From: Nitrospirota bacterium
GTDB taxonomy: Bacteria; Nitrospirota; JACRHL01
DNA length: 64,000 bases
Reading direction: 5' to 3'
Assembly: GCA_029858285.1 (NCBI GenBank)
Contig: JAOUFN010000002.1
Location: 9,842 to 73,841 of the forward strand
Position 1 is the stretch's first letter, and the number at the start of each line of letters is the position of its first letter. Below the pieces are notes generated by a model. That model was not told where the DNA came from. It did not search any database and saw nothing but the letters and a program-made list of their open reading frames with translations. Position numbers and translations under genes: made by a program. Positions 9,560-59,839 of this stretch are shown in pieces.

Positions 9560-11626
9560 ATGAACCAGACCAACACGGACAAATTCTGGGCTGCCCGGCT
9601 GCTGGAAATGCCCAGGATGGCCAAGCGCCTGCTGGCCCTGGCTGTGGATGGGGTCATGTGCGTGCTCACCGTGTGGCTCGCCCTCTATCTGCGTCTGGAG
9701 CAGTGGGTGACACCCCAGCCCGCGTACGAGGTGGCGGCAGCGGTGTCTATCCTGATCGGGTTGCCGCTGTTCGTGCGCTTCGGTCTGTACCGCGCCATTT
9801 TCAGGCATACCGGCTGGAACGCCATGCTGAGCCTGCTGCAGGCCATGGCGATATACACCCTGGGTTACGCCACGGTCTTTTCGGTAATCGGCGTGAACGG
9901 CGTGCCGCGCACGGTGGGCATCATTCAGCCCTTGTTGTTGATGGGGGGAATGGGGCTCACCCGCGTGATGGCGCGTTACTGGCTGGGCGGCATGTACCGT
10001 TCGGCCCTGCAACGGCAAAGCCTGTCAGGGGTGCTGGTGTACGGCGCCGGGTCCGCCGGGCGGCAGTTGGCCGCAGCCCTGTCCGGAGAGAGAGAGTACC
10101 GGCTGCTGGGCTTTCTGGACGACGACACCCGCCTGCATCACCACAGCCTGGACGGGCGGATGGTCTACTCCCCCGGGGAACTGGAACACCTGATCCCGAA
10201 GTTGAAGGTGACGGACGTCCTGCTGGCCATTCCGTCGGTCACCCACAAACGCCGCCTCGAAATTCTGGAAATACTGCGGCACTTTCCGGTACATGTCCGC
10301 ACCATGCCCAGCATGGCCGACCTGGCCTCTGGCCGCTTGCGCCTGAATGACATACGCGAACACATTACCGACCTGCTGGACCGCGAGATGGTCACCCCCA
10401 GCCGCCAGTTGCTCCACCGCAACACCTTCGGCAAAACCGTTCTGGTAACCGGTGCGGGTGGTAGCGTCGGCAGCGAACTGTGCCGCCAGATCGTCAAATG
10501 CCGACCCAAGGCCCTGCTGCTGGTGGACATGAGCGAGTTCGCGCTGTACCGGATCCACCACGAACTACAGGCCGAGCAGGAGGCACAGGGCTTCGCCTGG
10601 GGACCCGAACTGGTGCCGTTGCTTGCCTCCGCGTGCGACCCGACACGCATGCAGGAGATCATGCATACGTGGCACCCGCACACGGTCTATCACTCCGCCG
10701 CCTACAAGCATGTGCCACTGGTGGAGCACAACCCGGCGGAGGGGGTGCGCAACAACGTATGGGGAACCTGGATTTGCGCCCGGGCGGCGGCGCTGTGCGG
10801 GGTGGAAAGCTTCGTTCTCATCAGCACCGACAAGGCCGTTCGTCCCACCAACATCATGGGCGCCAGCAAACGTCTGGCCGAAATGGTGTTGCAGGGATTG
10901 GCCACCGCCGATTGGGAGCACCTGCCGGGTGACCAGCACCTCAACCCGACGCGCACCTGTTTCTCCATGGTGCGTTTCGGCAACGTGCTGGGTTCCAGTG
11001 GCTCGGTGGTGCCCCTGTTCCGCGAACAGATCAGGAACGGTGGCCCCATCACCATCACCCATCCCGACATCACCCGCTATTTCATGACCATCCAGGAGGC
11101 GGCCCAGTTGGTGATTCAGGCCGGCGCCATGGCCACCGGGGGCGACGTATTCGTGCTGGACATGGGCCAGCCGGTGCGCATTTACGACCTGGCGCGACGC
11201 ATGGTGCAGTTGTCCGGATTGACGGTGCGTGACGAGGCCCACCCCCACGGGAACATCGAAATCCAGATCACCGGCCTGCGGCCCGGCGAGAAACTCTACG
11301 AGGAGTTGCTGATCGGCGACAATCCCGAACCTACCCAGCACCCGCGTATTCTGAAGGCACATGAACACTGCCACAGTTGGGAAGTATTGCAGGATGAACT
11401 GCACACCCTGGAACTGGCGCTCAACAGGAACGATGTGCCTGTCATTCGCAACACCCTGCGCCAGTTGGTTCAGGGCTACGAACCCGCGAATACCGTGGTG
11501 GACTGGGTACACCTGGCCCACGAACGCGAGGAAATGGCGAAAACGTGGCGCGTCAAGCCCTCGCCCATCACCATGCCGCCCGGCCAGGATCCCTTCCCCA
11601 ACTCCAGACGACCGCTGGACACCTAG
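9560..11626 (+). CDS. UDP-GlcNAc 4,6-dehydratase, PglF/WbpM/CapD family
   Basis: N-terminal TM helices, YGAGSAG, VTGAGGSVGSEL, HSAAYKHVP, STDKAV, MGASK, VRFGNVLGSSGSV, GLRPGEKLYEEL. Confidence 0.93.
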   Translation: MNQTNTDKFWAARLLEMPRMAKRLLALAVDGVMCVLTVWLALYLRLEQWVTPQPAYEVAAAVSILIGLPLFVRFGLYRAIFRHTGWNAMLSLLQAMAIYTLGYATVFSVIGVNGVPRTVGIIQPLLLMGGMGLTRVMARYWLGGMYRSALQRQSLSGVLVYGAGSAGRQLAAALSGEREYRLLGFLDDDTRLHHHSLDGRMVYSPGELEHLIPKLKVTDVLLAIPSVTHKRRLEILEILRHFPVHVRTMPSMADLASGRLRLNDIREHITDLLDREMVTPSRQLLHRNTFGKTVLVTGAGGSVGSELCRQIVKCRPKALLLVDMSEFALYRIHHELQAEQEAQGFAWGPELVPLLASACDPTRMQEIMHTWHPHTVYHSAAYKHVPLVEHNPAEGVRNNVWGTWICARAAALCGVESFVLISTDKAVRPTNIMGASKRLAEMVLQGLATADWEHLPGDQHLNPTRTCFSMVRFGNVLGSSGSVVPLFREQIRNGGPITITHPDITRYFMTIQEAAQLVIQAGAMATGGDVFVLDMGQPVRIYDLARRMVQLSGLTVRDEAHPHGNIEIQITGLRPGEKLYEELLIGDNPEPTQHPRILKAHEHCHSWEVLQDELHTLELALNRNDVPVIRNTLRQLVQGYEPANTVVDWVHLAHEREEMAKTWRVKPSPITMPPGQDPFPNSRRPLDT

Positions 11627-31397: not shown

Positions 31398-31454
31398 GCC
31401 CTCGCCGACCGGCAGTGGGGGCCTTCCGAAGATGTCCCCCCCGGCGCCACACCC

Positions 31455-31553
31455 ATGGGGCGGGGTGCCCCCGGCGTCACCGATGGGGCGGGGTGCCCCC
31501 GGCGTCACCGATGGGGCGGGTGCCCCCGGCGTCACCGATGGGGCGGGTGCCCC
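31455..31553. repeat. 27-28 bp tandem repeat, about 3.6 copies, overlapping the fabH stop codon
   Basis: ATGGGGCGGGGTGCCCCCGGCGTCACCG starting at 31455, 31483, 31511 (27 bp) and 31538 (partial). Confidence 0.95.
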
Positions 31554-32679: not shown

Positions 32680-32833
32680 GCGATGAAGCTGGCCGCGCCA
32701 CGGATTTTACGCGCATGCGCCGGCCCCCACCCCGCCCGCCGCGATGAATGCAGAACTGCCGTGTGTGTTAGCGAATATGCCCGGGGGGTTCCCCCGCCGC
32801 GAATATGCCTGCGGGCCCCCCCCCCGCCCGCCG
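32680..32833 (-). repeat. Short degenerate array of the REP-like family found at 53.5-57 kb
   Basis: GCGATGAAGCTGGCCGCGCCACGGATTTTACGCG plus GCGAATA motifs, directly after the lpxC stop. Confidence 0.85.
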
Positions 32834-34054: not shown

Positions 34055-34549
34055 ATGAACGAATCGGCCCAACAGATCCCCGACAGCGGACAACTCGGCA
34101 CCCTGCCCCTGATCCACATTCTCGAGCATTTTGTGGACAAGGGGGTGACCGGCACCCTGGCGGTGCATCAGGACGCGGTGGTCAAGGCGATTTTTCTGCG
34201 CGACGGCGAGGTGGTGTTTGCCACCTCCACCAAGAAGATGGATCGTCTGGGCGAAGTGCTGGTGCGCACCGGGGTGATTTCGGCCTCGGCCCACGATGCC
34301 GCCACCAAGTCCATGCAGCAGAGCGGCAAACGCGAGGGGGAAACCCTGGTGGACATGGGCATCCTCACCCCCAAGGGGCTGTTCGAGGCCCTCAAGGTGC
34401 AGGTGGAGGAGATCATCCTCTCCATGTTCTTGTGGGATCAGGGCAAGTATCAGTTCATGCCGGGACGTCTGCCGGCCCACGTGGTGCCCCTGCCGGTGCG
34501 CATGGACCAGCTTCTGCCCCGCGCCCTGGACCGATTGGGCGGTCAGTAG
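34055..34549 (+). CDS. Stand-alone DUF4388 (PatA-N-like) protein
   Basis: GQLGTLPLIHIL, TGTLAV, IFLRDGEVVFA, RLGEVLV, FLWDQGKYQF. Confidence 0.8.
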   Translation: MNESAQQIPDSGQLGTLPLIHILEHFVDKGVTGTLAVHQDAVVKAIFLRDGEVVFATSTKKMDRLGEVLVRTGVISASAHDAATKSMQQSGKREGETLVDMGILTPKGLFEALKVQVEEIILSMFLWDQGKYQFMPGRLPAHVVPLPVRMDQLLPRALDRLGGQ

Positions 34550-34655
34550 GCATCGCCCGATTGGGCGGTCAGCAGGCATCGCCCGATTGGGCGGTCAGCA
34601 GGCATCGCCCGATTGGGCGGTCAGCAGGCATCGCCCGATTGGGCGGTCAGCAGGC
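34531..34655. repeat. 26-bp tandem repeat, about 4.8 copies
   Basis: CCGATTGGGCGGTCAG(T/C)AGGCATCGC starting at 34531, 34557, 34583, 34609, 34635. Confidence 0.97.
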
Positions 34656-37743: not shown

Positions 37744-37820
<77 letters not shown>

Positions 37821-37894
37821 CCTTGCCCCGCAAGAGCGGCGGTTTCCACGGGGAGCGAATGGACGCGGGTGGCGCCCGCACGCGGACACGGTTT

Positions 37895-37971
<77 letters not shown>

Positions 37972-38054
37972 TTTTCCGGCGCCCTGCGAGGTGGCAGACG
38001 GCAAAACACCGCCCCGGCGGCCCCGTCCGGGGGCACCTGGCGGCAAAAGATTGT

Positions 38055-38131
38055 GGTGGGCGTAGCTCAGTCGGTAGAGCCCCGGATTGTGGTTCCGGTT
38101 GTCGCGGGTTCGAGCCCCGTCGCTCACCCCA
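38055..38131 (+). tRNA. tRNA-His(GTG)
   Basis: G-1, anticodon arm CCGGA-TT-GTG-GT-TCCGG, C discriminator, CCA. Confidence 0.97.
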
Positions 38132-48026: not shown

Positions 48027-48821
48027 ATGTCGCCCCGCAAGCAACAATCCTCCGCCCCCCATATCGGCGTGGTTGGCGATTTCAATCCGGGTACTCCGCC
48101 CGGCAACATGGAGCGCTTTGGCGGCGACGAGGCCCACCACTTTCTGAACGCCCGCTACACCCGGGCGGTGCGCGACGCCGGGGGCATTCCGTGGCTGCTG
48201 CCGACCCCGGTGGACCCCGCCGACGCGGAGCGTTTTGCGGAAATCCACCTGGAGCGTCTGGACGGCCTGCTGATGACCGGCTGCGGCCGCCACCTGGACC
48301 CCGCCGCCTACGGCGAGTTGCCGCGCTTCGACCTGAACCTGATGGCCCCCGCCAAGCAGCGCTTCGAGGAGGCACTGGTGCGGGCCACCCGTGCGCGCCA
48401 GATGCCGGTGCTGGCCATTTGCGGCGGCATGCAGACCGCCAACGCGGTGCTGGGGGGAACCCTCGTCCAGCGCATCGGCGCCGAGGTGCCGGGGGCCCTG
48501 GAGCACATGCAGGAAACCAAGGCCATCCACACCGTGCACGATGTAACGGTGACCCCCGGCAGCCGCCTGGCGCGCATCACCGGCGCCAGCACCTTTGCCA
48601 CCAACTCTTCCCACACCCAGGCGGTGGGGCGGCCGGGGAACGGACTGACCGTCACCGCCCGCACCACCGACGGCGTGGCGGAGGCCTATGAATCCGCGGA
48701 CGGCTACCTGATCGGCCTGCAATGGCACCCGGAATACCTGTACCCGGAACACCCCGGCCAGGCCGCACTGTTCCTGGCCCTGATCCGCGCCGCCACGAGC
48801 GGCGGCCCGCTGGGGGGCTAG
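48027..48821 (+). CDS. Peptidase C26 / gamma-glutamyl-gamma-aminobutyrate hydrolase family
   Basis: DGLLMTG, AICGGMQ (Cys nucleophile), NSSHTQAV, QWHPE. Confidence 0.88.
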   Translation: MSPRKQQSSAPHIGVVGDFNPGTPPGNMERFGGDEAHHFLNARYTRAVRDAGGIPWLLPTPVDPADAERFAEIHLERLDGLLMTGCGRHLDPAAYGELPRFDLNLMAPAKQRFEEALVRATRARQMPVLAICGGMQTANAVLGGTLVQRIGAEVPGALEHMQETKAIHTVHDVTVTPGSRLARITGASTFATNSSHTQAVGRPGNGLTVTARTTDGVAEAYESADGYLIGLQWHPEYLYPEHPGQAALFLALIRAATSGGPLGG

Positions 48822-50209
48822 CGCCGCCCTCCGGACTTTGGCCCCGATCTGGATCCCGGCTTCGGCCCCGGCTTCGGACCGGGACCACCGCTGCCGCCGC
48901 GACCTCCCCGTGGGGGAGGGCCACCGGCATCCCGGTCACGACGCGGCGGGCCGCTTCGACCGGCACGATCAGGACGGTCGGCCCGGTCGGTGGGGCCAGT
49001 CCGATCCGTGCGTTCGGGGCGGGTCACCCGGCGGCCACCACGCCCCTCCTCGGCAAATCGCCCGTGCGGACGCCCCTCCGGTTCCTCCCGCCGGTTGCGG
49101 ATGCGCCCCCGTGGAGGCGGTCCGGCGTCCCGGTCACGCGGATCCCGGTCACGCGGATCCCGGTCACGCGGATCCCGGTCACGCGGATCCCGGTCGCGCG
49201 GGTCCCGGTCGCGCGGGTCCCGGTCGCGCGGGTCCCGGTCGCGCGGGTCCCGGTCGCGCGGGTCCCGGTCGCGCGGGTCCCGGTCGCGCGGGTCCCGGTC
49301 ACGCGGATCCCGGTCGCGCGGGTCCCGGTCATAAAACTCCCGCCGGGGCGACTCCTGCCTGAACTCTTCCCGCCGCCGGGCCGGGCGACGCGGGGGCCGC
49401 TGGGTCGGCTCGGCCTTTGCCGCCCGTTCCGCCAACGCCGCCCGCTCCGCCCGCGCCGAGCGTTTGACCACCGGTGTCGGTTCCGCCACCGGCTTTTCCG
49501 CGTCGGGGACCGGAATGGGCCGCCGCCCCTTTTCCTTGTACATGATGAACAGGTAGTTGAAGCCGCGCAGCAGGTAATTGCCCTCCACCGCCGAGGTGTG
49601 CCAGTGGTTGCGCATCAGGGTGCGGTTGTGGCGGCACACCGCCACAATGTCCACCGGCGTGAAATGCCGGCACAGCGCCCCGAACAGCTTGAAGCCGATG
49701 GCCTCGAACGGCTTGCCCAGTTCAAAGGAATCGCTCACGTACAGGGCCATGAAGCGCTCCGGGCGCAGGACGCGGTCCATGTCGGCGATGGCCGCCTCCA
49801 TGGCCGGATAGTAGGCGTCGCCCCGGGCGTCCAGTTCGCCGATGCAGTCGGGGCGGCCCGAGTAGCGCACGTGGTTCGAATAGGGCGGGTCCACGAACAC
49901 AAAGTCGGCCTTGGCGTCCTCCAGGGGCAATTTGCGCGCGTCGGCGCGAAAGATGTCGGGGCGGGAGGGGGCCACGTCGTACCCCAGGGCGCGGCGGTCC
50001 ATCTGGCGCGCCACATCCAGTGTGGTGCCGCTGCCGCACATGGGGTCCACCACCAGTTGTCCGGGGCGGGTGTAGCGCGCCAGCAGGTTGGCGATCAGGT
50101 AACTGGGGGTGGAGCCAACGTAGGCATTGTCCCCCTGCCCCCCCTCGCCGTGGGTGCGCGACGCATAGTCCCACAAGGTGGTGGTCATTACCGGCAGATC
50201 GCCGTCCAT
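48818..50209 (-). CDS. SAM-dependent amino-methyltransferase (DPPY type) with a long Arg/Asp-rich low-complexity tail
   Basis: VVDPMCGSGTT (motif I) precedes FVFVDPPY (motif IV); (DRDPR)13 tail; start approximate. Confidence 0.82.
   Translation of the reverse strand: MDGDLPVMTTTLWDYASRTHGEGGQGDNAYVGSTPSYLIANLLARYTRPGQLVVDPMCGSGTTLDVARQMDRRALGYDVAPSRPDIFRADARKLPLEDAKADFVFVDPPYSNHVRYSGRPDCIGELDARGDAYYPAMEAAIADMDRVLRPERFMALYVSDSFELGKPFEAIGFKLFGALCRHFTPVDIVAVCRHNRTLMRNHWHTSAVEGNYLLRGFNYLFIMYKEKGRRPIPVPDAEKPVAEPTPVVKRSARAERAALAERAAKAEPTQRPPRRPARRREEFRQESPRREFYDRDPRDRDPRDRDPRDRDPRDRDPRDRDPRDRDPRDRDPRDRDPRDRDPRDRDPRDRDPRDRDPRDRDAGPPPRGRIRNRREEPEGRPHGRFAEEGRGGRRVTRPERTDRTGPTDRADRPDRAGRSGPPRRDRDAGGPPPRGGRGGSGGPGPKPGPKPGSRSGPKSGGRR
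49126..49330. repeat. 15-bp coding tandem repeat, about 13.7 copies, encoding DRDPR
   Basis: G(A/G)TCCCGGTC(A/G)CGCG repeated; variation confined to synonymous positions on the minus strand. Confidence 0.98.
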
Positions 50210-50475
50210 GATAAAGCGAATTTCCCTGGTCACGGTGCTCCGTTGTCCATCTCCGTTGTCCATCTCCACGCCCTGGCCACCCCCCGTCCACACCCGGACG
50301 GAAGCGCGGACATTTGCGGAAATCGCGATTGCGGGTAAAGTATCGCGAGCCGGTCACGCATGCCGACACACGCCGGTAATTGTACGGCAGGTCGGACGCA
50401 AGGTGACGCCGGAAGCGGAATCCATCACGGGACGGGGACACGGGATGGGGTTGCGGTGCGCGGCGAACGTGCAAG

Positions 50476-50534
50476 CGGTTCATGGCAACGGTTCATGGCA
50501 ACGGTTCATGGCAACGGTTCATGGCAACGGTTCA
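50476..50534 (+). repeat. 13-bp tandem repeat, 4.5 copies, immediately upstream of the pntA RBS
   Basis: CGGTTCATGGCAA starting at 50476, 50489, 50502, 50515, plus CGGTTCA. Confidence 0.97.
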
Positions 50535-51692: not shown

Positions 51693-52046
51693 ATGAGTGC
51701 TTTTTCCGAAAATCTTGCCCGGTTGACCCACGACGTGCCCGCCGCCGTCCCCCACGGTGCCCTGCCGTCGGCGTTCGTGATCGGTCTGACCGTGTTCGTG
51801 CTGGCGGTGTTCGTCGGCTACCACGTGGTGTGGAAGGTCACCCCGGCCCTGCACACTCCGCTGATGAGCGTCACCAACGCCATCAGCGCGGTGATCATCG
51901 TGGGCGCGCTGCTGGCCGCCGGACCTCATGAACTCAGTCTGGCCACGGTGCTGGGGCTGGTGGCGGTGGCCCTGGCCAGCGTCAACATGTTTGGCGGCTT
52001 TCTGGTCACCCAGCGCATGCTTGAAATGTTCAAGAAAAAGAAGTAG
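51693..52046 (+). CDS. pntAB: NAD(P) transhydrogenase subunit alpha, part 2
   Basis: [31 protein letters not shown]. Confidence 0.96.
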
Positions 52047-52122
52047 GCCCGTCCCGCCGTTCTTTCCCCATTTTCATCCACGGCCCGATAACCCCGATCA
52101 TCGGCAGCGGAGGTTTTTTTTC

Positions 52123-53514
52123 GTGTCCCAGAACGCCACCAGCCTTGCATACCTGACCGCCTCGGTCCTGTTCATCCTGTCCCTCAAGGGGCTGTCGTCC
52201 CCGGAAACCGCCCGGCGCGGCAACCTTGCGGGGATGCTGGGCATGGCCATCGCGGTGATCACCACCCTGCTCACTCCGGGTGTGGTCGGGTACGGCCCAA
52301 TCCTCGCCATGCTGGTGCTGGGCGGCACCATCGGCGCCGTGGTGGCGCGGCGCATTCCCATGACTTCCATGCCGGAACTGGTGGCGGCCATGCACTCCCT
52401 GGTGGGTCTGGCTGCGGTGCTGATCGCCGTGGCGGCCTACCTGAACCCCCATGAATACGGCATCGCCCTGCCTGGCGGCGGCATCGCCACCGGCAGCCTG
52501 GTGGAGATGGTGGTCGGCGCCTTTGTCGGCGCCATCACCTTCACCGGTTCGGTGGTGGCCTTCGGCAAGCTAAAGGGGACTTTTGGCAGCAACCCGTTGA
52601 TGTTCCATGGCCAGCACTTGCTGAACCTGCTGCTGGGGCTGACCATGGTCGGCACCACCATCTGGTTCTGCACCCACCCCTCTCTGGCCCCGTTTCTGGT
52701 GGTCATTGCCCTGGCGCTGGCGCTGGGGGTGCTGCTGATCATCCCCATCGGCGGCGCCGACATGCCGGTGATCGTCTCCATGCTCAACTCGTACTCCGGG
52801 TGGGCGGCGGCGGGCATCGGTTTTACCCTGGGCAACCACCTGCTGATCATCACCGGGGCGCTGGTGGGCAGTTCCGGCGCCATCCTGTCGTACATCATGT
52901 GCAAGGCCATGAACCGCTCCATCTGGAACGTGCTGTTCGGCGGCTTCGGCGCCGAGGTTGCCCCCAGCGCCCAGCAGGCCGCCGCCAGCAAGGGCGCCAA
53001 GAGCGGCAGCCCGGAGGACGCGGCGTTTTTGATGAAGAACGCCAGCAGCGTGATCATCATCCCCGGCTACGGCATGGCCGTGGGGCGCGCCCAGCACGCG
53101 GTAAAGGAAATGGCCGAACTGCTCGGCGAGGCCGGAGTCAAGGTGCGCTTTGCCATTCACCCGGTGGCGGGCCGCATGCCCGGCCACATGAACGTGCTGC
53201 TGGCAGAGGCCGAAGTACCCTATGACCAGGTGTTCGAAATGGAGGAGATCAATCGCGAATTCGTGGACTGCGACGTGGCGCTGGTGATCGGCGCCAACGA
53301 CGTGGTCAACCCCCTGGCGCGCACCGACCCCTCCAGCCCCATCCACGGCATGCCGATTCTGGACGCGGACCGCGCCAAGACGGTGATGGTGGTCAAACGC
53401 AGCCTGGCCCCCGGCTACGCGGGCATCGACAACCCCCTGTTCTACGCCGACAACACCCTGATGCTGTTCGGCGACGCCAAGCACATCGCCGAAGCCATCG
53501 TCCACTCCCTCTAG
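52123..53514 (+). CDS. pntB: NAD(P) transhydrogenase subunit beta
   Basis: GTG after CGGAGG; MPELVAAMHSLVG, SMLNSYSGW, PGYGMAV, HPVAGRMPGHMN, GANDVVNP, FGDAK. Confidence 0.97.
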   Translation: MSQNATSLAYLTASVLFILSLKGLSSPETARRGNLAGMLGMAIAVITTLLTPGVVGYGPILAMLVLGGTIGAVVARRIPMTSMPELVAAMHSLVGLAAVLIAVAAYLNPHEYGIALPGGGIATGSLVEMVVGAFVGAITFTGSVVAFGKLKGTFGSNPLMFHGQHLLNLLLGLTMVGTTIWFCTHPSLAPFLVVIALALALGVLLIIPIGGADMPVIVSMLNSYSGWAAAGIGFTLGNHLLIITGALVGSSGAILSYIMCKAMNRSIWNVLFGGFGAEVAPSAQQAAASKGAKSGSPEDAAFLMKNASSVIIIPGYGMAVGRAQHAVKEMAELLGEAGVKVRFAIHPVAGRMPGHMNVLLAEAEVPYDQVFEMEEINREFVDCDVALVIGANDVVNPLARTDPSSPIHGMPILDADRAKTVMVVKRSLAPGYAGIDNPLFYADNTLMLFGDAKHIAEAIVHSL

Positions 53515-54530
53515 CCGGGGAGCCCCCACGGGCGTATTCGCGGCGGGCACGGCCCGCAGCGGTATTCGCGTAAAACCCAGGGGGGGACGCCCCCCGGCGA
53601 TATTCGCGCAAAACCCGTGGCGCGGCCAGCTTCATCGCGAAACAATCCGCGCCTTTTTCTTCCGCTTTTTCCGTCCCCCTGCCAGTGTCACCGATCGACG
53701 ACAAACCATACGTGACGGCTATTCCAGCCGGTCTCACGTGGGACAAATCTAATCCATCACTTTCCGCATCACGTGCCGTGCGCACAGCACCTCCCTTTCC
53801 TCCCCATTGGGGGGGCGGGCACGGCCCGCAGCGGTATTCGCGCAAAACCCGTGGCGCGGCCAGCTTCATCGCGGCCGGGGAGCCCCGGCGGGCCTATTCG
53901 CGTAAAACCCGTGGCGCGGCCAGCTTCATCGCGAAACAATCCGCGCCTTTTTCTTCCGCTTTTTCCGTTCCCCTGCCAGTGTCACCGATCGACGACAAAC
54001 TATACGTGACGGCTATTCCAGCCGGTCTCACGCGGGACAAATCTAATCCATCACTTTCCGCATCACGTGCCGTGCGCACAGCACCTCCCTTTCCTCCCCA
54101 TTGGGGGGGGAAAGGGCTGGGGATAGGGGGGGCCGGAATTGACGTGGGAGGCAACCCGGACACGGGGGTGCTGGATCGCCGCCCCTTCTGCGCCCCCCGT
54201 CACGGCCCCGTTCATCGCGGCCGGGGAGCCCCGGCGGGCGGCGGGCACGGCCCGCAGCGGTATTCGCGTAAAACCCGTGGCGCGGCCAGCTTCATCGCGA
54301 ACCGGGCCGCGTCTTTTCTTCCGCCCCCCGCAAGGGCAACGCAAGGGGCTGAACGCCGCTTCTGCGCCCTTGAAAGGGTCTTTCGCCAATGCGGTGGGGA
54401 CGGGGGCGAAAACCGCATATTCGCCCCCTGAAAGGGCCGCAATCGGTTTTGCCCCTGCGGCGGGCACGGCTCGTTTCGCGATGAACGCGGACCCACCACG
54501 GGTTTTACGCGAATACCGCCGGGAACCCCG
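53512..54530 (+). repeat. Left modular REP/REPIN-like array containing two copies of a long conserved core
   Basis: 39-bp unit TATTCGCGYAAAACCCGTGGCGCGGCCAGCTTCATCGCG at 53601, 53835, 53895, 54261 (inverted variant near 54475); long modules 53601-53815 and 53895-54155; small GC hairpins between. Confidence 0.95.
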
Positions 54531-54583
54531 CCACCCGCCACTGCTGCTGGACACGTTCGGGTGTGCTCGCATAGGATTGGGCG

Positions 54584-55156
54584 ATGCGGTCCCTGTACCC
54601 CACCCCCCCCCTTCGACCGCGCCGGGCACCCGTCTGGCTGAGCGCGGGGCTGGGCCTTCTGCTGGCGGGATGCAGCGGCTGGCAGCCGGTGACGGATCCC
54701 TCCCGCACCCTGTCCAGCGACCATTACGGCTCCAGCCAGTTGGCCGGCTCCCTGATGGTCACCGTGCGCCTGGTGGGATGGCGCGAACCGGCTCCCTCCC
54801 GCTTGCAGGAGTACGTAACACCCATCTACCTTCAGGTACGTAACGGCGGCGCGGCCACCGCACATTTTTCCCCCGAGGACGTGGTGCTGGTGGACGACGA
54901 GGGGACGCTCTTTCGGGCCATTTCTCCGGAGCGGCTGGAGGCGCTGGTGGGCGGTCGGGGCGGCGCCGAGTTTCAGGGCGCCGGGGGGGATGACCTGGGC
55001 GCCACCCTGGCGGCGCTGACCGCCGGAGACATTACCCCCAACACCCAGGTGCGGGGTGCGGTCTATTTTGCCCGTGGCGCCGCTTTCACCCGCACCATGA
55101 CGGTACGGGTGCCGGTGCAGGGCGAAACCCTCGAATTCCGGTTCCGTGCCCGCTGA
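54584..55156 (+). CDS. Hypothetical lipoprotein
   Basis: Lipobox LLLAG-C; beta-rich mature domain; stop overlaps the ppx start. Confidence 0.75.
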   Translation: MRSLYPTPPLRPRRAPVWLSAGLGLLLAGCSGWQPVTDPSRTLSSDHYGSSQLAGSLMVTVRLVGWREPAPSRLQEYVTPIYLQVRNGGAATAHFSPEDVVLVDDEGTLFRAISPERLEALVGGRGGAEFQGAGGDDLGATLAALTAGDITPNTQVRGAVYFARGAAFTRTMTVRVPVQGETLEFRFRAR

Positions 55157-56108
55157 TCTGATCCGCCTTACCCCTCCACGCAGTGGCCGGGTGGCGGCGG
55201 TGGACGTGGGCACCAACACCATCCGCCTGCTGGTGGCGGAGGTGGACGAGCGCAACGCCATCCGCGTGGAGGTGTCGGGCCGCGCCATGGCCCGGTTGGG
55301 AGAGGGGCTGGCGGCCAGCGGCAAACTGTCGCCCGCAGCCATGGAGCGCGCCCTGCGCACCCTGGGGGAATTTGCCGGACAGATTCGCGACGCCGCCCCG
55401 CAAGGAGTGGTGGCCGCCGCCACCAGCGCGGTGCGCGAGGCCGAAAACGGCGCGGAATTCGTCGATCGGGTGCGGCGCGAGACCGGCCTGCAACTGAACA
55501 TCATCTCCGGCGAGGAGGAAGCCCGCCTTACCGCACTGGGGGCCGCCTCGGTGCTGAACGGCGATGTGCGCAACCTGCTCATCGTGGACATCGGCGGCGG
55601 CAGCACCGAATTCATTCTGATCCGCTCCGGGGAGCAACGGGCGCGGGTTTCCACCACCATGGGGGTGGTCACCGGCAGCGAACGTTTTTTGCGCTCCGAC
55701 CCACCCCACGCGGCAGAGCTGTACGATCTGGACGAGTTCATCCGCGACCACATGCGCCGCGTGCGCGCGGAACTGGGCGAGGTGGGGCAGGTGCGGCTGG
55801 TGGCCACTGCCGGAACCCCCACCACCCTGGCCGCCATGGACCAGCAAATGGCCGAGTACGATCCGGCGCGCATCAACAACCATGTGTTGCCCCTGGCGCG
55901 GGTGGAAGAGATGTTCGACCACATCGTACGCGCCCCCATCGCCGAACGCTCCCGCATGATCGGCATCGAGCCGGGCCGCGAGGAGCTGATGGTGGTGGGC
56001 TGCTGCATCCTGCTTCGGGTGATGCACGATTTCCAGTTCGGCGCCGTGGCCGTGAGCGATTACGGCCTGCGCGAAGGGCTGGCCCTCGACCTCTTCCATC
56101 GCCTCTGA
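55146..56108 (+). CDS. ppx: Ppx/GppA family phosphatase (short form)
   Basis: AVDVGTNTIRL, ARLGEG, ATSAVREAENG, ISGEEEA, DIGGGSTE, YGLREG. Confidence 0.92.
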   Translation: MPADLIRLTPPRSGRVAAVDVGTNTIRLLVAEVDERNAIRVEVSGRAMARLGEGLAASGKLSPAAMERALRTLGEFAGQIRDAAPQGVVAAATSAVREAENGAEFVDRVRRETGLQLNIISGEEEARLTALGAASVLNGDVRNLLIVDIGGGSTEFILIRSGEQRARVSTTMGVVTGSERFLRSDPPHAAELYDLDEFIRDHMRRVRAELGEVGQVRLVATAGTPTTLAAMDQQMAEYDPARINNHVLPLARVEEMFDHIVRAPIAERSRMIGIEPGREELMVVGCCILLRVMHDFQFGAVAVSDYGLREGLALDLFHRL

Positions 56109-56968
56109 CCGGCGGAGGGCGCCCCCCGGCGGAATTTGTGGAGGGCAGAGCCGGGGCGCTCCCCGGCCCGGCACCCCCACGCCCGCGTTGCCTCCCACGT
56201 CGATTCCGGCCCCCCCTATCCCCAGCCCTTTCCCCCCCCAATGGGGAGGAAAGGGAGGTGCTGTGCGCACGGCACGTGATGCGGAAAGTGATGGATTAGA
56301 TTTGTCCCGCGTGAGACCGGCTGGAATAGCCGTCACGTATGGTTTGTCGTCGAGCGGTGACACTGGCAGGGGGACGGAAGAAAACGGAAGAAAAGACGCG
56401 GCCAGATTCGCGATGGACGGGGCCGCGCCATATGTTTTACGCGAATATGCCCGCCGGGGCTCCCCGGCCCCGTACCCCCGTTTCCGCGTTGCCTCCCACG
56501 TCGATTCCGGCCCCCCCTATCCCCAGCCCTTTCCCCCCCAACGGGGGGGAAAGGGAGGTGCTGTGCGCACGGCACGTGATGCGGAAAGTGACTGATCGGA
56601 TTTGTCCCGCGTGGGACCGGCTGGAATAGCCGTCACGTATAGTTTGTCGTCGATCGGTGACACTGGCAGGGGGACGGAAAAAGCGGAAGAAAAAGGCGCG
56701 GCCGGATTCGCGATGGACGGGGCCGTGCCACGGGTTTTACGCGAATACCGCTGCGGGCCGTGCCCGCCGCCTGCCGGGGCTCCCCGGCCGCGATGAAGCT
56801 GGCCGCGCCACGGGTTTTGCGCGAATACCGCCGGGGGGCGTCCCCCCCTGGGTTTTACGCGAATACGCCCGCCGGGGCTCCCCGGCCGCGATGGACGGGG
56901 CCGTGCCACGGGTTTTACGCGAATACCGCTGCGGGCCGTGCCCGCCGCCCGCCGGGGCTTCCCGGCTA
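56109..56968 (-). repeat. Right modular REP/REPIN-like array, inverted relative to the left array
   Basis: Long modules 56187-56447 and 56488-56748 (301-bp period); 39-bp units near 56408, 56708, 56790, 56888; terminal GGGGCTTCCCGGCTA. Confidence 0.95.
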
Positions 56969-56975
56969 TGCCCCC

Positions 56976-59549
56976 TTAACCGATGGCGCCCCAACTGAGA
57001 TGATCGCGCCAGCGTTCGGCCACGGTGCGGCGCAGGGGGGCGTGATGGGGGCGGGACAGATCGGGATCGGCGGCCAGCAGGGTGACGGCGGCCTGTCTGG
57101 CTTCGGCCAGCAGGGGGGCATCCTTGATGAGATTGGCCACCTTGAGCTCCGGCAAACCCGACTGGCGACGCCCGAACAATTCACCGGGGCCGCGAATTTC
57201 CAGATCGCGCTCGGCGATGACAAAGCCGTCTTCGGATTCCACCACGGCCTTGAGGCGTGCGCGCCCGTCGCGAGACACCGCGTGGGACGCCACCAGCAGG
57301 CACTCCCCCTGCCAGGCGCCGCGCCCCACCCGGCCGCGCAACTGATGCAACTGGGACAGGCCAAAACGCTCGGCGTGCTCCACCACCATCACGGTGGCTT
57401 CGGCCACATCCACGCCCACCTCCACCACTGTGGTGGTGACCAGCACCTGGATCTTTCCGGCGGCAAAATCGGCCATGATGCGGCTCTTGTCGTCGCTGCC
57501 CATGCGCCCGTGCAGCAGGGTCAGGGACAGTCCGGCCAACGCGCCGTGCTGCAATTCCTCAATGGCCCCGGTGGCGGCGCGCAGGTCGGATTTTTCCGAC
57601 TCCTCCACCAGCGGATGCACCACATAGGCGCGCCGCCCCTTTTCCACCGCGCGCCGCAGGCGGGCGTAAACCTGCTCCCGGTGGGTAGCGGAATAGAGGC
57701 GGGTGCGCACCGGGGAACGGCCCGGCGGCAACTGGTCGATCACCGACAGGTCCAGGTCGCCGTAGACGGTCATGGCCAGACTGCGGGGGATGGGGGTGGC
57801 GGTCATGGTCAGGGTGTGGGGAAACAACCCCTTGGCGCCGATCTGGGCCCGCTGGCGCACACCGAACCGATGTTGCTCGTCCACCACGGCCACCCCCAGC
57901 CGATGGAAGGCGACCTTTTCCTGAATCAGCGCCTGGGTACCGACCACCATGGGCACACTGCCGTCGGCCACGGCGGCGAGGGTGGCGGCGCGACCGGCGC
58001 GGGCGCCGCCGGTGAGCAGCACGATGGGCACCCCGAGTGGCGCCAGCAGCGCCCCCAGCTTGCGATAATGCTGCTCGGCGAGCACCTCGGTGGGGGCCAT
58101 CAACGCCCCCTGAAAGCCGTTGTCCACCGCCCGCAGCAGGGCCATCAGCGCCACCACCGTCTTGCCGCACCCCACATCGCCCTGCACCAGCCGGTGCATG
58201 GGGGTGTCTCGCGACAGGTCCCTGAAAATCTCCGCCAGTACCCGCTCCTGGGCGGCGGTGAGGGCAAATGGCAGGGTTTCGCGCAGGCGCGTCTCCAGCG
58301 CACCGGGGCGGTCGGCCAGGAGCACCCGCGTATGGCGACGGCGCACCGTCTGGCGGCGCAGTCCCAGCCCCACCTGCAGGCAAAAAAACTCTTCGAAGGC
58401 AAAGCGCCGGGTGGCCAGGGTGGCGTCCGCCAGCCGCGCCGGGCGGTGCACGTCGCGGAACGCCTGGCTGCGTTCCGGCAGGCCGAGGGTTGCACGCAGA
58501 TCCGCCGGCAGGGGGTCTTCCAGGCGCACGGCCTCCAGGGCTTTGGCCACCCAGGTGCGCAACTGGCGGGAGGTGAGCCCCTCGGTGACCGGGTAGACCG
58601 CCACCACCCGGCCGGTATGGAGTTTTTCCTCGCCGGATTCCCACGGTTCACACTCCGGGTTCTCCAGCACCGGCCCTCCCGTGAAGCGGTCGAACACCAC
58701 GCGGCCGGAGAACAGGTACTGGTTTCCGGTCTGGATGCGGCGTGCCTGAAACGGCTGGTTGAACCAGCGCGCCACCACCATCCCGCCCAGCGGGGAGCCG
58801 TCGCTGATGGCGGCCTCGAAGATGCGCATGCGGCGGCGCGGCGTGGTCTTGAGTTCCGTGTCCACCACCGTGCCGCGCACCGTGGCGGCGCTGCCGTGGG
58901 ACAGTTCCGACACGTTCTGGATGTGGCTGCGATCCTCGTAGCGGGACGGCAGATGCAGCAACAGGTCCTCGATGCTGCGGATGCCCAGCCGTTCCAGCAG
59001 CAGGGCGCGGCGCTCGCCGACCCCCGGCAGGTAACGCACCGGGCTGTCGGTGCCCAGCACCTCGGGCGCCTTGTCGGCGGCGGGCGCCGGATGCGAGAGC
59101 ACGGTGGCGGACGGGACGGCGGACCCGGCGGCGACCTTGGGGCTGGATTTGGGGCCGGATTTGGGGGCAGACCGGGGGACAGAGGCAGCGGCGGACGCGG
59201 CGGCGATCTGCGTTCCGGCGCCAGACGCCTCCGCCACGGCACAGATGCCGTCCAGCACCGCCTTCAGGCAGGTGCGGCGGGCGGCGGCGTCCTGGCTGTC
59301 CCATGTGGACAGGGCGTCCAGCCATGCGGCGGCGCGAGCGTGTTCTGCGCTGCCCCCGGGAAAGGTCTCGCGCCACGCGCCGAGCCTGGCGCGCACCAGA
59401 TCGGCCAGCCCGCGGATACGGTCGAGGGGGGCGCCGGTGCGGGTGGCAAAGGTAAGGGGGCCGATCAGGTCCGCCAGCGGTCCAGGGACCGAGGCGCTAC
59501 CAGGGGAAGTGGCGGGGCCAGTGCCGGGTTTGGCGGTGGGACGTTTCAC
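56976..59549 (-). CDS. recG: ATP-dependent DNA helicase RecG with a Pro/Ala-rich N-terminal extension
   Basis: QGDVGCGKT, APTEVLAEQH, VDEQHRFG, MTATPIPR, LSQLHQLRGRVGRG, RGPGE; start approximate. Confidence 0.95.
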   Translation of the reverse strand: MKRPTAKPGTGPATSPGSASVPGPLADLIGPLTFATRTGAPLDRIRGLADLVRARLGAWRETFPGGSAEHARAAAWLDALSTWDSQDAAARRTCLKAVLDGICAVAEASGAGTQIAAASAAASVPRSAPKSGPKSSPKVAAGSAVPSATVLSHPAPAADKAPEVLGTDSPVRYLPGVGERRALLLERLGIRSIEDLLLHLPSRYEDRSHIQNVSELSHGSAATVRGTVVDTELKTTPRRRMRIFEAAISDGSPLGGMVVARWFNQPFQARRIQTGNQYLFSGRVVFDRFTGGPVLENPECEPWESGEEKLHTGRVVAVYPVTEGLTSRQLRTWVAKALEAVRLEDPLPADLRATLGLPERSQAFRDVHRPARLADATLATRRFAFEEFFCLQVGLGLRRQTVRRRHTRVLLADRPGALETRLRETLPFALTAAQERVLAEIFRDLSRDTPMHRLVQGDVGCGKTVVALMALLRAVDNGFQGALMAPTEVLAEQHYRKLGALLAPLGVPIVLLTGGARAGRAATLAAVADGSVPMVVGTQALIQEKVAFHRLGVAVVDEQHRFGVRQRAQIGAKGLFPHTLTMTATPIPRSLAMTVYGDLDLSVIDQLPPGRSPVRTRLYSATHREQVYARLRRAVEKGRRAYVVHPLVEESEKSDLRAATGAIEELQHGALAGLSLTLLHGRMGSDDKSRIMADFAAGKIQVLVTTTVVEVGVDVAEATVMVVEHAERFGLSQLHQLRGRVGRGAWQGECLLVASHAVSRDGRARLKAVVESEDGFVIAERDLEIRGPGELFGRRQSGLPELKVANLIKDAPLLAEARQAAVTLLAADPDLSRPHHAPLRRTVAERWRDHLSWGAIG

Positions 59550-59839
59550 GGGCGGTCCGTGCGGACAACGCCCGGAATATTCCCGGAAATGTTCCCGGAA
59601 ATGTTCCGGTGAAGGGCACCCGCAAGACCCTTGTGGGCAGAAATCCGTTCTGGTATCATACTCGGCCCGTGCGGTTTTTTGCCGTCCCCCCCGCATTCCC
59701 ACATGCTGGCGCCCCGCGCGGGGACGCCTTGCCTGGCAGGGATTGACGGCGAGGGGGCATGGGGTTCGCGGGTGTGCAGCAGTTGCAGCGACCGCGTACG
59801 CAAGGGTTTCCGCGAGTTTTTTTTCCGGGAGAGTTTCCG

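Follow-up and report, generated by a model that had tools for sequence, protein, structure and literature searches.

Repetitive extragenic palindromic (REP) sequences and bacterial interspersed mosaic elements (BIMEs) occur in tens to hundreds of copies per genome, and REP/RAYT systems comprise a cognate single-copy RAYT gene, encoding a Y1 transposase, that is flanked by REPs. Correia/CREE, ERIC and RIME elements are miniature inverted-repeat transposable elements (MITEs) that carry internal functional sites and have clear terminal inverted repeats, and Correia elements also show a TA duplication. The REP/BIME clusters of enterobacteria constitute bacterial interspersed mosaic elements (PMC3333891). 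REPINs are inverted REP doublets of approximately 100 bp that form one long hairpin (Bertels and Rainey, PMC3116915). In Pseudomonas putida KT2440, A'-ssr9-B', a small RNA (sRNA) module of ISPpu9 (IS110 family), is mobilised into REPs (PMC12288879). RRS/TRIP1 of E. coli is present in 2–3 copies at fixed chromosomal positions and has a shown effect on replication (PMC10592627). Here, we analyzed a 64,000-nt stretch of DNA (the window; positions 9,842–73,841, forward strand, of contig JAOUFN010000002.1, assembly GCA_029858285.1) from a Nitrospirota bacterium, in which four closely similar modules, c1 to c4, lie in two neighbouring intergenic spacers. Judged by the relatives of its Ppx protein, the host is an uncultured Nitrospirota/Leptospirillia-like bacterium (67.7% GC). 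On balance, and with only moderate confidence, we favor the explanation that the modules represent a new lineage-specific family of non-coding mosaic extragenic repeats, REP/BIME-like in kind, that would supply homology for rearrangement.

Each module begins with a 39-bp unit A (TATTCGCGYAAAACCCGTGGCRCGGCC..CATCGCG), followed by a segment able to pair back into unit A, a pyrimidine tract, a core, and a C-run/G-run hairpin. The short-form c1 (53601–53815, plus strand) consists of unit A at 53601–53639, the stem partner and pyrimidine tract at 53640–53672, and the core at 53673–53815, and it ends inside the terminal hairpin. The long-form c2 (53895–54175, plus strand) has unit A at 53895–53933, a pyrimidine tract extending to 53966, the core at 53967–54109, and a G-rich tail. 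The other two copies are long forms on the minus strand: c3 at 56167–56447 (core 56233–56375) and c4 at 56468–56747 (core 56533–56675), the latter carrying an alternative TCCGATCAGT haplotype. A preliminary description of the window had reported four modules sharing a 39-bp unit, a pyrimidine tract, and a core. All four were present at those sites with these parts in common, although c2, c3, and c4 are each approximately 20 nt longer than described, and the terminal hairpin attributed to every module is found in c2, c3, and c4 but not in c1, which lacks the GAAAGGG arm and the G-rich tail. The core had been put at approximately 110 bp; it in fact spans 143 bp, from GTYCCCCTGCC to CCCCRTTGGGGGGG. 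Its supposedly balanced composition is balanced only relatively, as it is C-rich (A27 C54 G32 T29), with 59–63% GC against 67.7% in the window. The 18-bp near-palindrome GTGCCGTGCGCACAGCAC and the CGGCT-ATTCC-AGCCG and GTCYC-ACGY-GGGAC hairpins were found as described, including the perfect GTCYC stem in c4; the 18-mer occurs four times in the window, always in a module, against a chance expectation of 0.28.

The window copies share 91–98% pairwise identity over their first 215 nt, and this similarity is unevenly distributed. The core aligns over 143 columns with zero indels at 94–99% identity (134–141/143), with 140–141 matches among c1, c2, and c3 and 134–135 between these and c4. In contrast, the 72-nt scaffold is only 79–89% identical between the left and right sides. 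The c3 copy is a case in point, since its scaffold is 79–81% identical to those of c1 and c2, yet its core is 98–99% identical to theirs; it combines a right-cluster scaffold and tail with a left-cluster core. Variants have thus been reshuffled among copies, as gene conversion would give. In c2, c3, and c4, the G-rich tail holds a canonical G-quadruplex motif (G8-AAA-G3-CT-G4-ATA-G7, with G7–8 as the first run) on the sense strand of every long-form module (54103–54132, plus strand; 56210–56239 and 56511–56539, minus strand), which overlaps the 3' arm of the terminal hairpin. The whole window contains 27 G-quadruplex motifs. In being GC-rich intergenic repeats of approximately 220 bp with a strong G-quadruplex motif on one strand, present in the window as inverted copies, the modules resemble RRS/TRIP1; they differ in having many dispersed copies and in including short forms without the motif.

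The modules are part of a wider mosaic. The left repeat cluster (53515–54583, plus strand; 1,069 bp) extends from the pntB stop to the lipoprotein start and contains unit A, the hairpins H1 (GCCGGGGAGCCCCGGC), H2 (GCGGGCACGGCCCGC), and H3 (GGGGGGGACGCCCCCC), c1, c2, a linker, a second type of module, and one inverted unit A. The right cluster (56109–56975, minus strand; 867 bp) extends from the ppx stop to the recG stop and contains the same mosaic motifs in inverted orientation, so that approximately 1.9 kb of repeats fills two neighbouring spacers. Module 2 (54261–54413, plus strand) has the same unit A and short T-tract as module 1, the type represented by c1 to c4, and a different conserved cargo of approximately 90 nt. 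The lone inverted unit A (54477–54515, minus strand) lies just upstream of the lipoprotein promoter. Unit A, the three hairpins, module 1, and module 2 occur in an order that varies both between the two clusters and among the metagenome loci L001–L012 described below. Larger blocks are also shared: a block of approximately 825 bp (short module, H2-A-H1, long module, linker, module 2) is common to the left cluster and L001, and the short–long dimer alone recurs in L007. Copies of module 2 are present in L001 (3810–3954), L006 (5846–5986), L009 (228–363), and L008 (256–326) with 88–99% identity, and in four metagenome loci module 2 has its 3' end 6–42 nt away from where a convergent gene stops.

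Unit A also occurs free of cargo, with units spaced by the three short GC hairpins. The window contains 8 exact-pattern and 12 loose matches to it, 11 of the latter within 53.5–57.0 kb. The only one elsewhere, a diverged unit A (32680–32716, minus strand), belongs to a repeat patch between fabH and lpxC (32680–32830) that also holds a 27-bp duplicated GCGAATATGCCCGC-type motif. Every copy of module 1 or module 2 whose 5' end lies on its contig starts at the CATCGCG/AA junction of unit A. The cargo-free A units run straight into H1, and c3 and c4 are likewise followed by H1. This fixed junction is compatible with site-specific insertion.

Judged from its sequence organization, this architecture is that of BIME-like mosaic repeats, and not that of a MITE or a REPIN, two of the classes to which the preliminary description had tentatively assigned the modules. 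Like REP/BIME clusters, the repeats are extragenic, lie mostly behind stop codons, and combine a few short GC-rich palindromes with other motifs in varying order and orientation; they are also restricted to one lineage, interrupt assemblies, and offer sequence on which rearrangement can act. However, the sequences are unrelated, unit A is not a simple palindrome and has no GTAG-type head, and the cargo measures 90–260 bp, compared with tens of bp in BIMEs. The observation that a long conserved cargo sits on REP-like scaffolding proved to be real. With Correia/CREE, ERIC, and RIME, the modules share a size of 150–280 bp, many near-identical intergenic copies, and internal hairpins, but they have no consistent terminal inverted repeats or target-site duplications. 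Their ends show only a weak inverted match, in which the pyrimidine tract agrees with the reverse-complemented G-rich tail at 15/24 positions; the short forms lack this match, and it shows no covariation. The only candidate duplication is TTCATCGCG, which flanks c2 plus the linker and is itself part of a partial unit A; the other copies have none. The REPIN layout does not fit either. REPINs are comparable as REP-derived, non-autonomous, vertically kept populations of intergenic sequences, whereas the module here carries a single unit A, placed 5', without an inverted counterpart at the 3' end, and its long interior is not palindromic. In c2 and its flanks, the inverted matches of at least 8 nt consist only of the terminal hairpin and two chance-level 8-mers.

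The distribution of the family is narrow. The core 20-mer GACGGCTATTCCAGCCGGTC had no match in 185,579 GTDB species representatives, and a degenerate unit-A pattern had one match in the same set (Luteolibacter), which was not accompanied by a module and was attributed to chance. No match to the module was found in plasmids, phages, or viral contigs (IMG/VR). The 20-mer search identified 11 true loci, all in a single JGI metagenome, Ga0224495; another match, L005, was a chance 20-mer inside a gene. By BLAST and a covariance model, Ga0224495 contains 14 more full or partial cores on nine scaffolds, with 87–97% module identity. Many of these copies are cut by the ends of contigs or scaffold pieces, as expected because repeats break assemblies. 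Their neighbouring genes have housekeeping roles and include hisS, cysS, lepA, and histidine kinase and ABC transporter genes, none of which is homologous to the six window proteins around the clusters, indicating that these copies lie at other loci. The covariance model R1, run over 199 kb, recovered only near-identical copies and no diverged relatives. As far as the searched collections show, the family is confined to the organism of the window and one related population.

The modules belong to a genuine multi-copy non-coding family, as had been suspected, and the plasmid, phage, viral, GTDB, and protein collections gave no match to a known insertion sequence end or gene fragment. Two protein-coding interpretations were considered and rejected. 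On the minus strand, the commoner haplotype has a TGA within the open reading frame (ORF) whose GTG start follows a GGAGG; on the plus strand, the always-open frame has no ribosome-binding site and shows approximately 9 non-synonymous versus 4 synonymous changes, as counted by eye. Translations of two core frames had no relative among 5.8 billion predicted proteins. The Rfam search that had been proposed matched no described RNA family: with Rfam 15, three tRNAs were the only window sequences to reach the gathering score, and 53400–57000 gave no relevant match at E<=10. The tRNAs form a cluster at 37744–38131 comprising tRNA-Pro(TGG), tRNA-Arg(TCT), and tRNA-His(GTG).

All module copies are intergenic, and 13 of the 16 gene ends adjoining clusters are 3' ends. 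Of ten modules whose upstream gene is known, eight run in the direction of that gene. Most scaffold variants fold into a 7–9 bp GC stem followed by U5CUU, a terminator-like structure whose loop, at 17–21 nt, is large; one variant does not fold, and a simple terminator scan did not flag the structure. The hairpin and T-tract on the 5' side of the module may act in a REP-like manner, either terminating transcription of the upstream gene or stabilising its 3' end.

The two clusters bracket a gene pair whose orientation differs from that in related genomes. In the window, pntB (51928–53514, plus strand; true start probably near 52108) is followed by the left cluster, the genes for a lipoprotein (54584–55156) and a Ppx/GppA phosphatase (55146 or 55191 to 56108), both on the plus strand, the right cluster, and recG on the minus strand (56976–59702). 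In contrast, four relatives (Ppx 74, 69, 65, and 61% identical) carry recG, the lipoprotein gene (187–190 aa), and ppx all pointing the same way. After ppx, three of these four have a convergent pntB, counting the 32-aa contig-end fragment in L020, which is assumed to be pntB; at this position L017 has different genes. Apart from this region, the window is colinear with its closest relative, L013, through the genes for Ldh, aldehyde dehydrogenase, peptidase C26, pntAB, recG, ADH, and enoyl-CoA hydratase. In L013, the recG–lipoprotein spacer is 53 nt and the ppx–pntB spacer 10 nt; in L015, the pntB–ppx spacer is 45 nt, and the spacers measure 10–59 nt in the three relatives with gene coordinates across both. 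Repeats were absent from the outgroup loci searched (L013–L018, not L020). As assembled, the lipoprotein–ppx unit thus appears to be inverted in place, with boundaries exactly at the two inverted clusters, which share 305-nt inverted arms at 90% identity and other inverted pairs of up to 100% identity over 39 nt. Recombination between the clusters is the simplest account of this inversion.

A promoter-like motif, TGGACA-N18-TAGGAT (54548–54577, plus strand), ends 6 nt before the lipoprotein ATG. The TGGACA-N17/18-TAGGAT motif is shared by the window and L013, and the TAGGAT hexamer is also found at the equivalent position in L015; the corresponding regions (window, 54548–54583; L013, 5376–5417; L015, 4430–4445) place this -10-like hexamer 6–7 nt before the lipoprotein start. 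The conservation of this motif on the flipped unit indicates that the unit carries its own predicted promoter, and its position suggests a leaderless or nearly leaderless transcript. Although the modules themselves were correctly recognized in the preliminary description, the wider mosaic with its second cargo, the copies elsewhere, and the clusters bracketing the inverted gene pair had been missed.

In the favored explanation, the building blocks would be the 39-bp unit A, the three small GC hairpins, and two or more longer cargos, each of them attached directly after the CATCGCG end of a unit A and itself followed by a hairpin and T-tract. Blocks would have been copied as units of several hundred bp into short gene-adjoining spacers, mostly behind stop codons, and recent spread together with gene conversion between copies would have kept the 143-bp core near-identical. 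After both spacers had been colonised, recombination between the inverted clusters may have flipped the promoter–lipoprotein–ppx unit.

The inversion itself, but not the modules, may alternatively be an assembly artefact, in which inverted repeats were collapsed and the middle segment between them was placed the wrong way round, and we regard this as a possible, though not the likely, situation. An exact inverted repeat of 138 bp is shared by c2 and c3 (54002–54139 and 56203–56340), a de Bruijn graph allows a path through the middle segment in both directions, and the JGI assembly of the module-bearing population breaks at these very modules. On the other hand, the scaffold of c3 is closest to that of c4 (89%), the CAACGCGG tail variant is common to c3 and c4 only, and the c2 scaffold is 99% identical to that of c1. 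This match of scaffold and tail to the assembled neighbours mildly favors the assembly, and the contig is unbroken through all four modules, suggesting read support. The variant patterns are mosaic and do not decide where the crossover behind the inversion would lie.

A second alternative concerns the core, which might be a multi-copy small RNA or a structured 3'-untranslated-region element produced from the module-sense strand. An RNA role of the core is possible, although in this specific form we consider it unlikely. Within the core, column identity is 97% without indels, while the full module alignment including the scaffold averages 85% with indels, and the predominantly co-directional placement behind upstream genes also fits an RNA. 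The RNAalifold consensus consists of a 7-bp closing stem, UACGUGA/UCACGUG, around two small hairpins and a 24-nt unpaired stretch, followed by a short hairpin and the terminal hairpin. The unpaired stretch carries four linked differences that define two haplotypes, UCUAAUCCAU and UCCGAUCAGU, as alternative recognition sequences would. Fold z-scores of the core were lower on the sense strand (-3.1 and -4.1) than on the antisense strand (-1.7 and -3.0). Moreover, 99.4% of cells in the core hairpins are paired on the module-sense strand, compared with 92.0% on the opposite strand, a difference due to three G-U positions. The variable stem columns all stay paired on the sense strand, as U-G/C-G/U-A at the GUCYC hairpin and U-G/C-G at the terminal hairpin, and one true compensatory change was observed, in which one copy has U-A in place of C-G.

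However, covariation was not significant, since 24 of the 28 tested pairs are invariant and 224 of 500 shuffles reached the observed value. The CGGCT hairpin is invariant by construction, because it is the search pattern itself. The z-score of the whole module was -1.9, no Rfam family matched, a promoter scan detected no sigma-70-like promoter within or ahead of the core, the terminal hairpin is not followed by a U-run, and the core lies downstream of a terminator-like hairpin and T-tract. As to the earlier suggestion of a structured non-coding RNA family, the local hairpins do exist, but the covariation analysis and the modest fold z-scores lend it little weight. Two further candidates were discarded. 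A long-range pairing of the alternative haplotype, involving a CCGATCG segment, is found only in c4 and shows no covariation. The best promoter candidate inside the module, GTGTCA-16-TATACG (8/12), lacks the final T, reads CATACG in 5 of 12 copies, and was missed by the scan.

According to a third explanation, which seems more doubtful still, the module is a non-autonomous mobile element moved into the fixed unit-A position by a REP-targeting recombinase encoded elsewhere, either of the IS110/IS1111 type, as for A'-ssr9-B' of ISPpu9, or of the RAYT/IS200-IS605 (Y1) type. The constant junction and the passage of both cargo-free A units and c3/c4 into H1 have the look of empty and filled sites, and the near-identity of copies without diverged relatives is as expected after a recent spread. 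A precedent is the sRNA module mobilised into REPs by an IS110-family transposase (PMC12288879). Like ssr9, the module is a multi-copy, small, non-coding cargo with a fixed junction to REP-type sequence and no adjacent transposase gene, and by analogy it is possibly riding on a REP-targeting enzyme. However, ssr9 has a mapped promoter and transcript, defined A'/B' boxes, and a known transposase, which sets it apart from the module here. No transposase, RAYT, or recombinase was detected by Pfam scans among the 40 window ORFs or the scanned ORFs next to modules in the metagenome loci, and no IS110 gene was found in either set. The module shows no consistent terminal repeat or duplication, and a search for bridge- or guide-like complementarity of at least 8 nt between the core and the junctions yielded chance-level 8-mers only. 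The blocks of approximately 825 bp common to different loci fit recombination or duplication equally well.

A more speculative combination of these ideas, by analogy with ssr9 or bridge RNAs, would make the core a functional orphan guide-like or regulatory RNA on a selfish REP-targeting module that an IS110/IS1111-like recombinase copies; the two loop haplotypes would be its alternative recognition sequences, and paired inverted insertions would drive gene inversions locally. We give this proposal little credence. Finally, a reversible switch that flips the lipoprotein–ppx unit to alter expression is very improbable. The 305-nt inverted repeats at 90% identity do surround a complete transcription unit, but no invertase or recombinase is encoded nearby (40 window ORFs), the unit keeps its own promoter either way round, and the repeats are ordinary members of a dispersed family.

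Several of these observations weigh against the explanation of the modules as REP/BIME-like mosaic repeats that promote rearrangement. The core is far better conserved than the scaffold, which a purely selfish element does not predict and which could reflect function, and the G-U strand asymmetry hints at an RNA or single-strand role of the core. An A-C mismatch in the scaffold hairpin in 8 of 12 copies weakens the terminator idea. The inversion rests on one assembly, in which the 138-bp exact repeat could have led a short-read assembler to mis-orient the middle segment. The lack of a transposase, RAYT, or recombinase gene among the window ORFs is a further point on this side.

Other features of the window were noted in passing. 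The longest recG ORF encodes 908 aa, compared with 804–812 aa in relatives, and homology begins at residue 55–205, so that either the start is called too early or the protein has an Ala/Pro/Ser/Gly-rich N-terminal extension. An ORF at 48818–50353 (minus strand) has a partial N6_N4 DNA-methylase Pfam match and, at 49127–49330, a tandem array of 13.6 copies of a 15-bp unit (GTCCCGGTCGCGCGG), each unit corresponding to five codons. Because the genes on either side of it, for peptidase C26 and pntAa, adjoin each other in L013, the ORF looks like an insertion. Three further tandem repeats were found: a 13-bp repeat in 4.8 copies (GCAACGGTTCATG; 50471–50534) upstream of the start of PntA homology, probably in the pntA leader or promoter region; a 26-bp repeat in 4.8 copies with 98% match (CCGATTGGGCGGTCAGCAGGCATCGC; 34531–34655) at and just past the end of a DUF4388 gene, with a period that is not a multiple of three; and a 28-bp repeat in 3.8 copies with 97% match (31450–31553) between a 227-aa ORF and fabH.

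Beyond the well-studied proteobacteria, our analysis documents mosaic extragenic repeats in a high-GC, Nitrospirota/Leptospirillia-like lineage that is uncultured, with cargo motifs that are unusually long and almost invariant. Because such repeats break metagenome assemblies and can mis-orient segments, synteny based on metagenome-assembled genomes should be interpreted with caution. The family would carry greater weight if the core turned out to act as an RNA or as a substrate for a recombinase. Provided that the assembly is correct, the locus is a clean local case of repeats reshaping gene order, in which spacers of 10–53 nt have grown to approximately 1 kb each and the operon remnant between the clusters has been flipped while keeping its own promoter.

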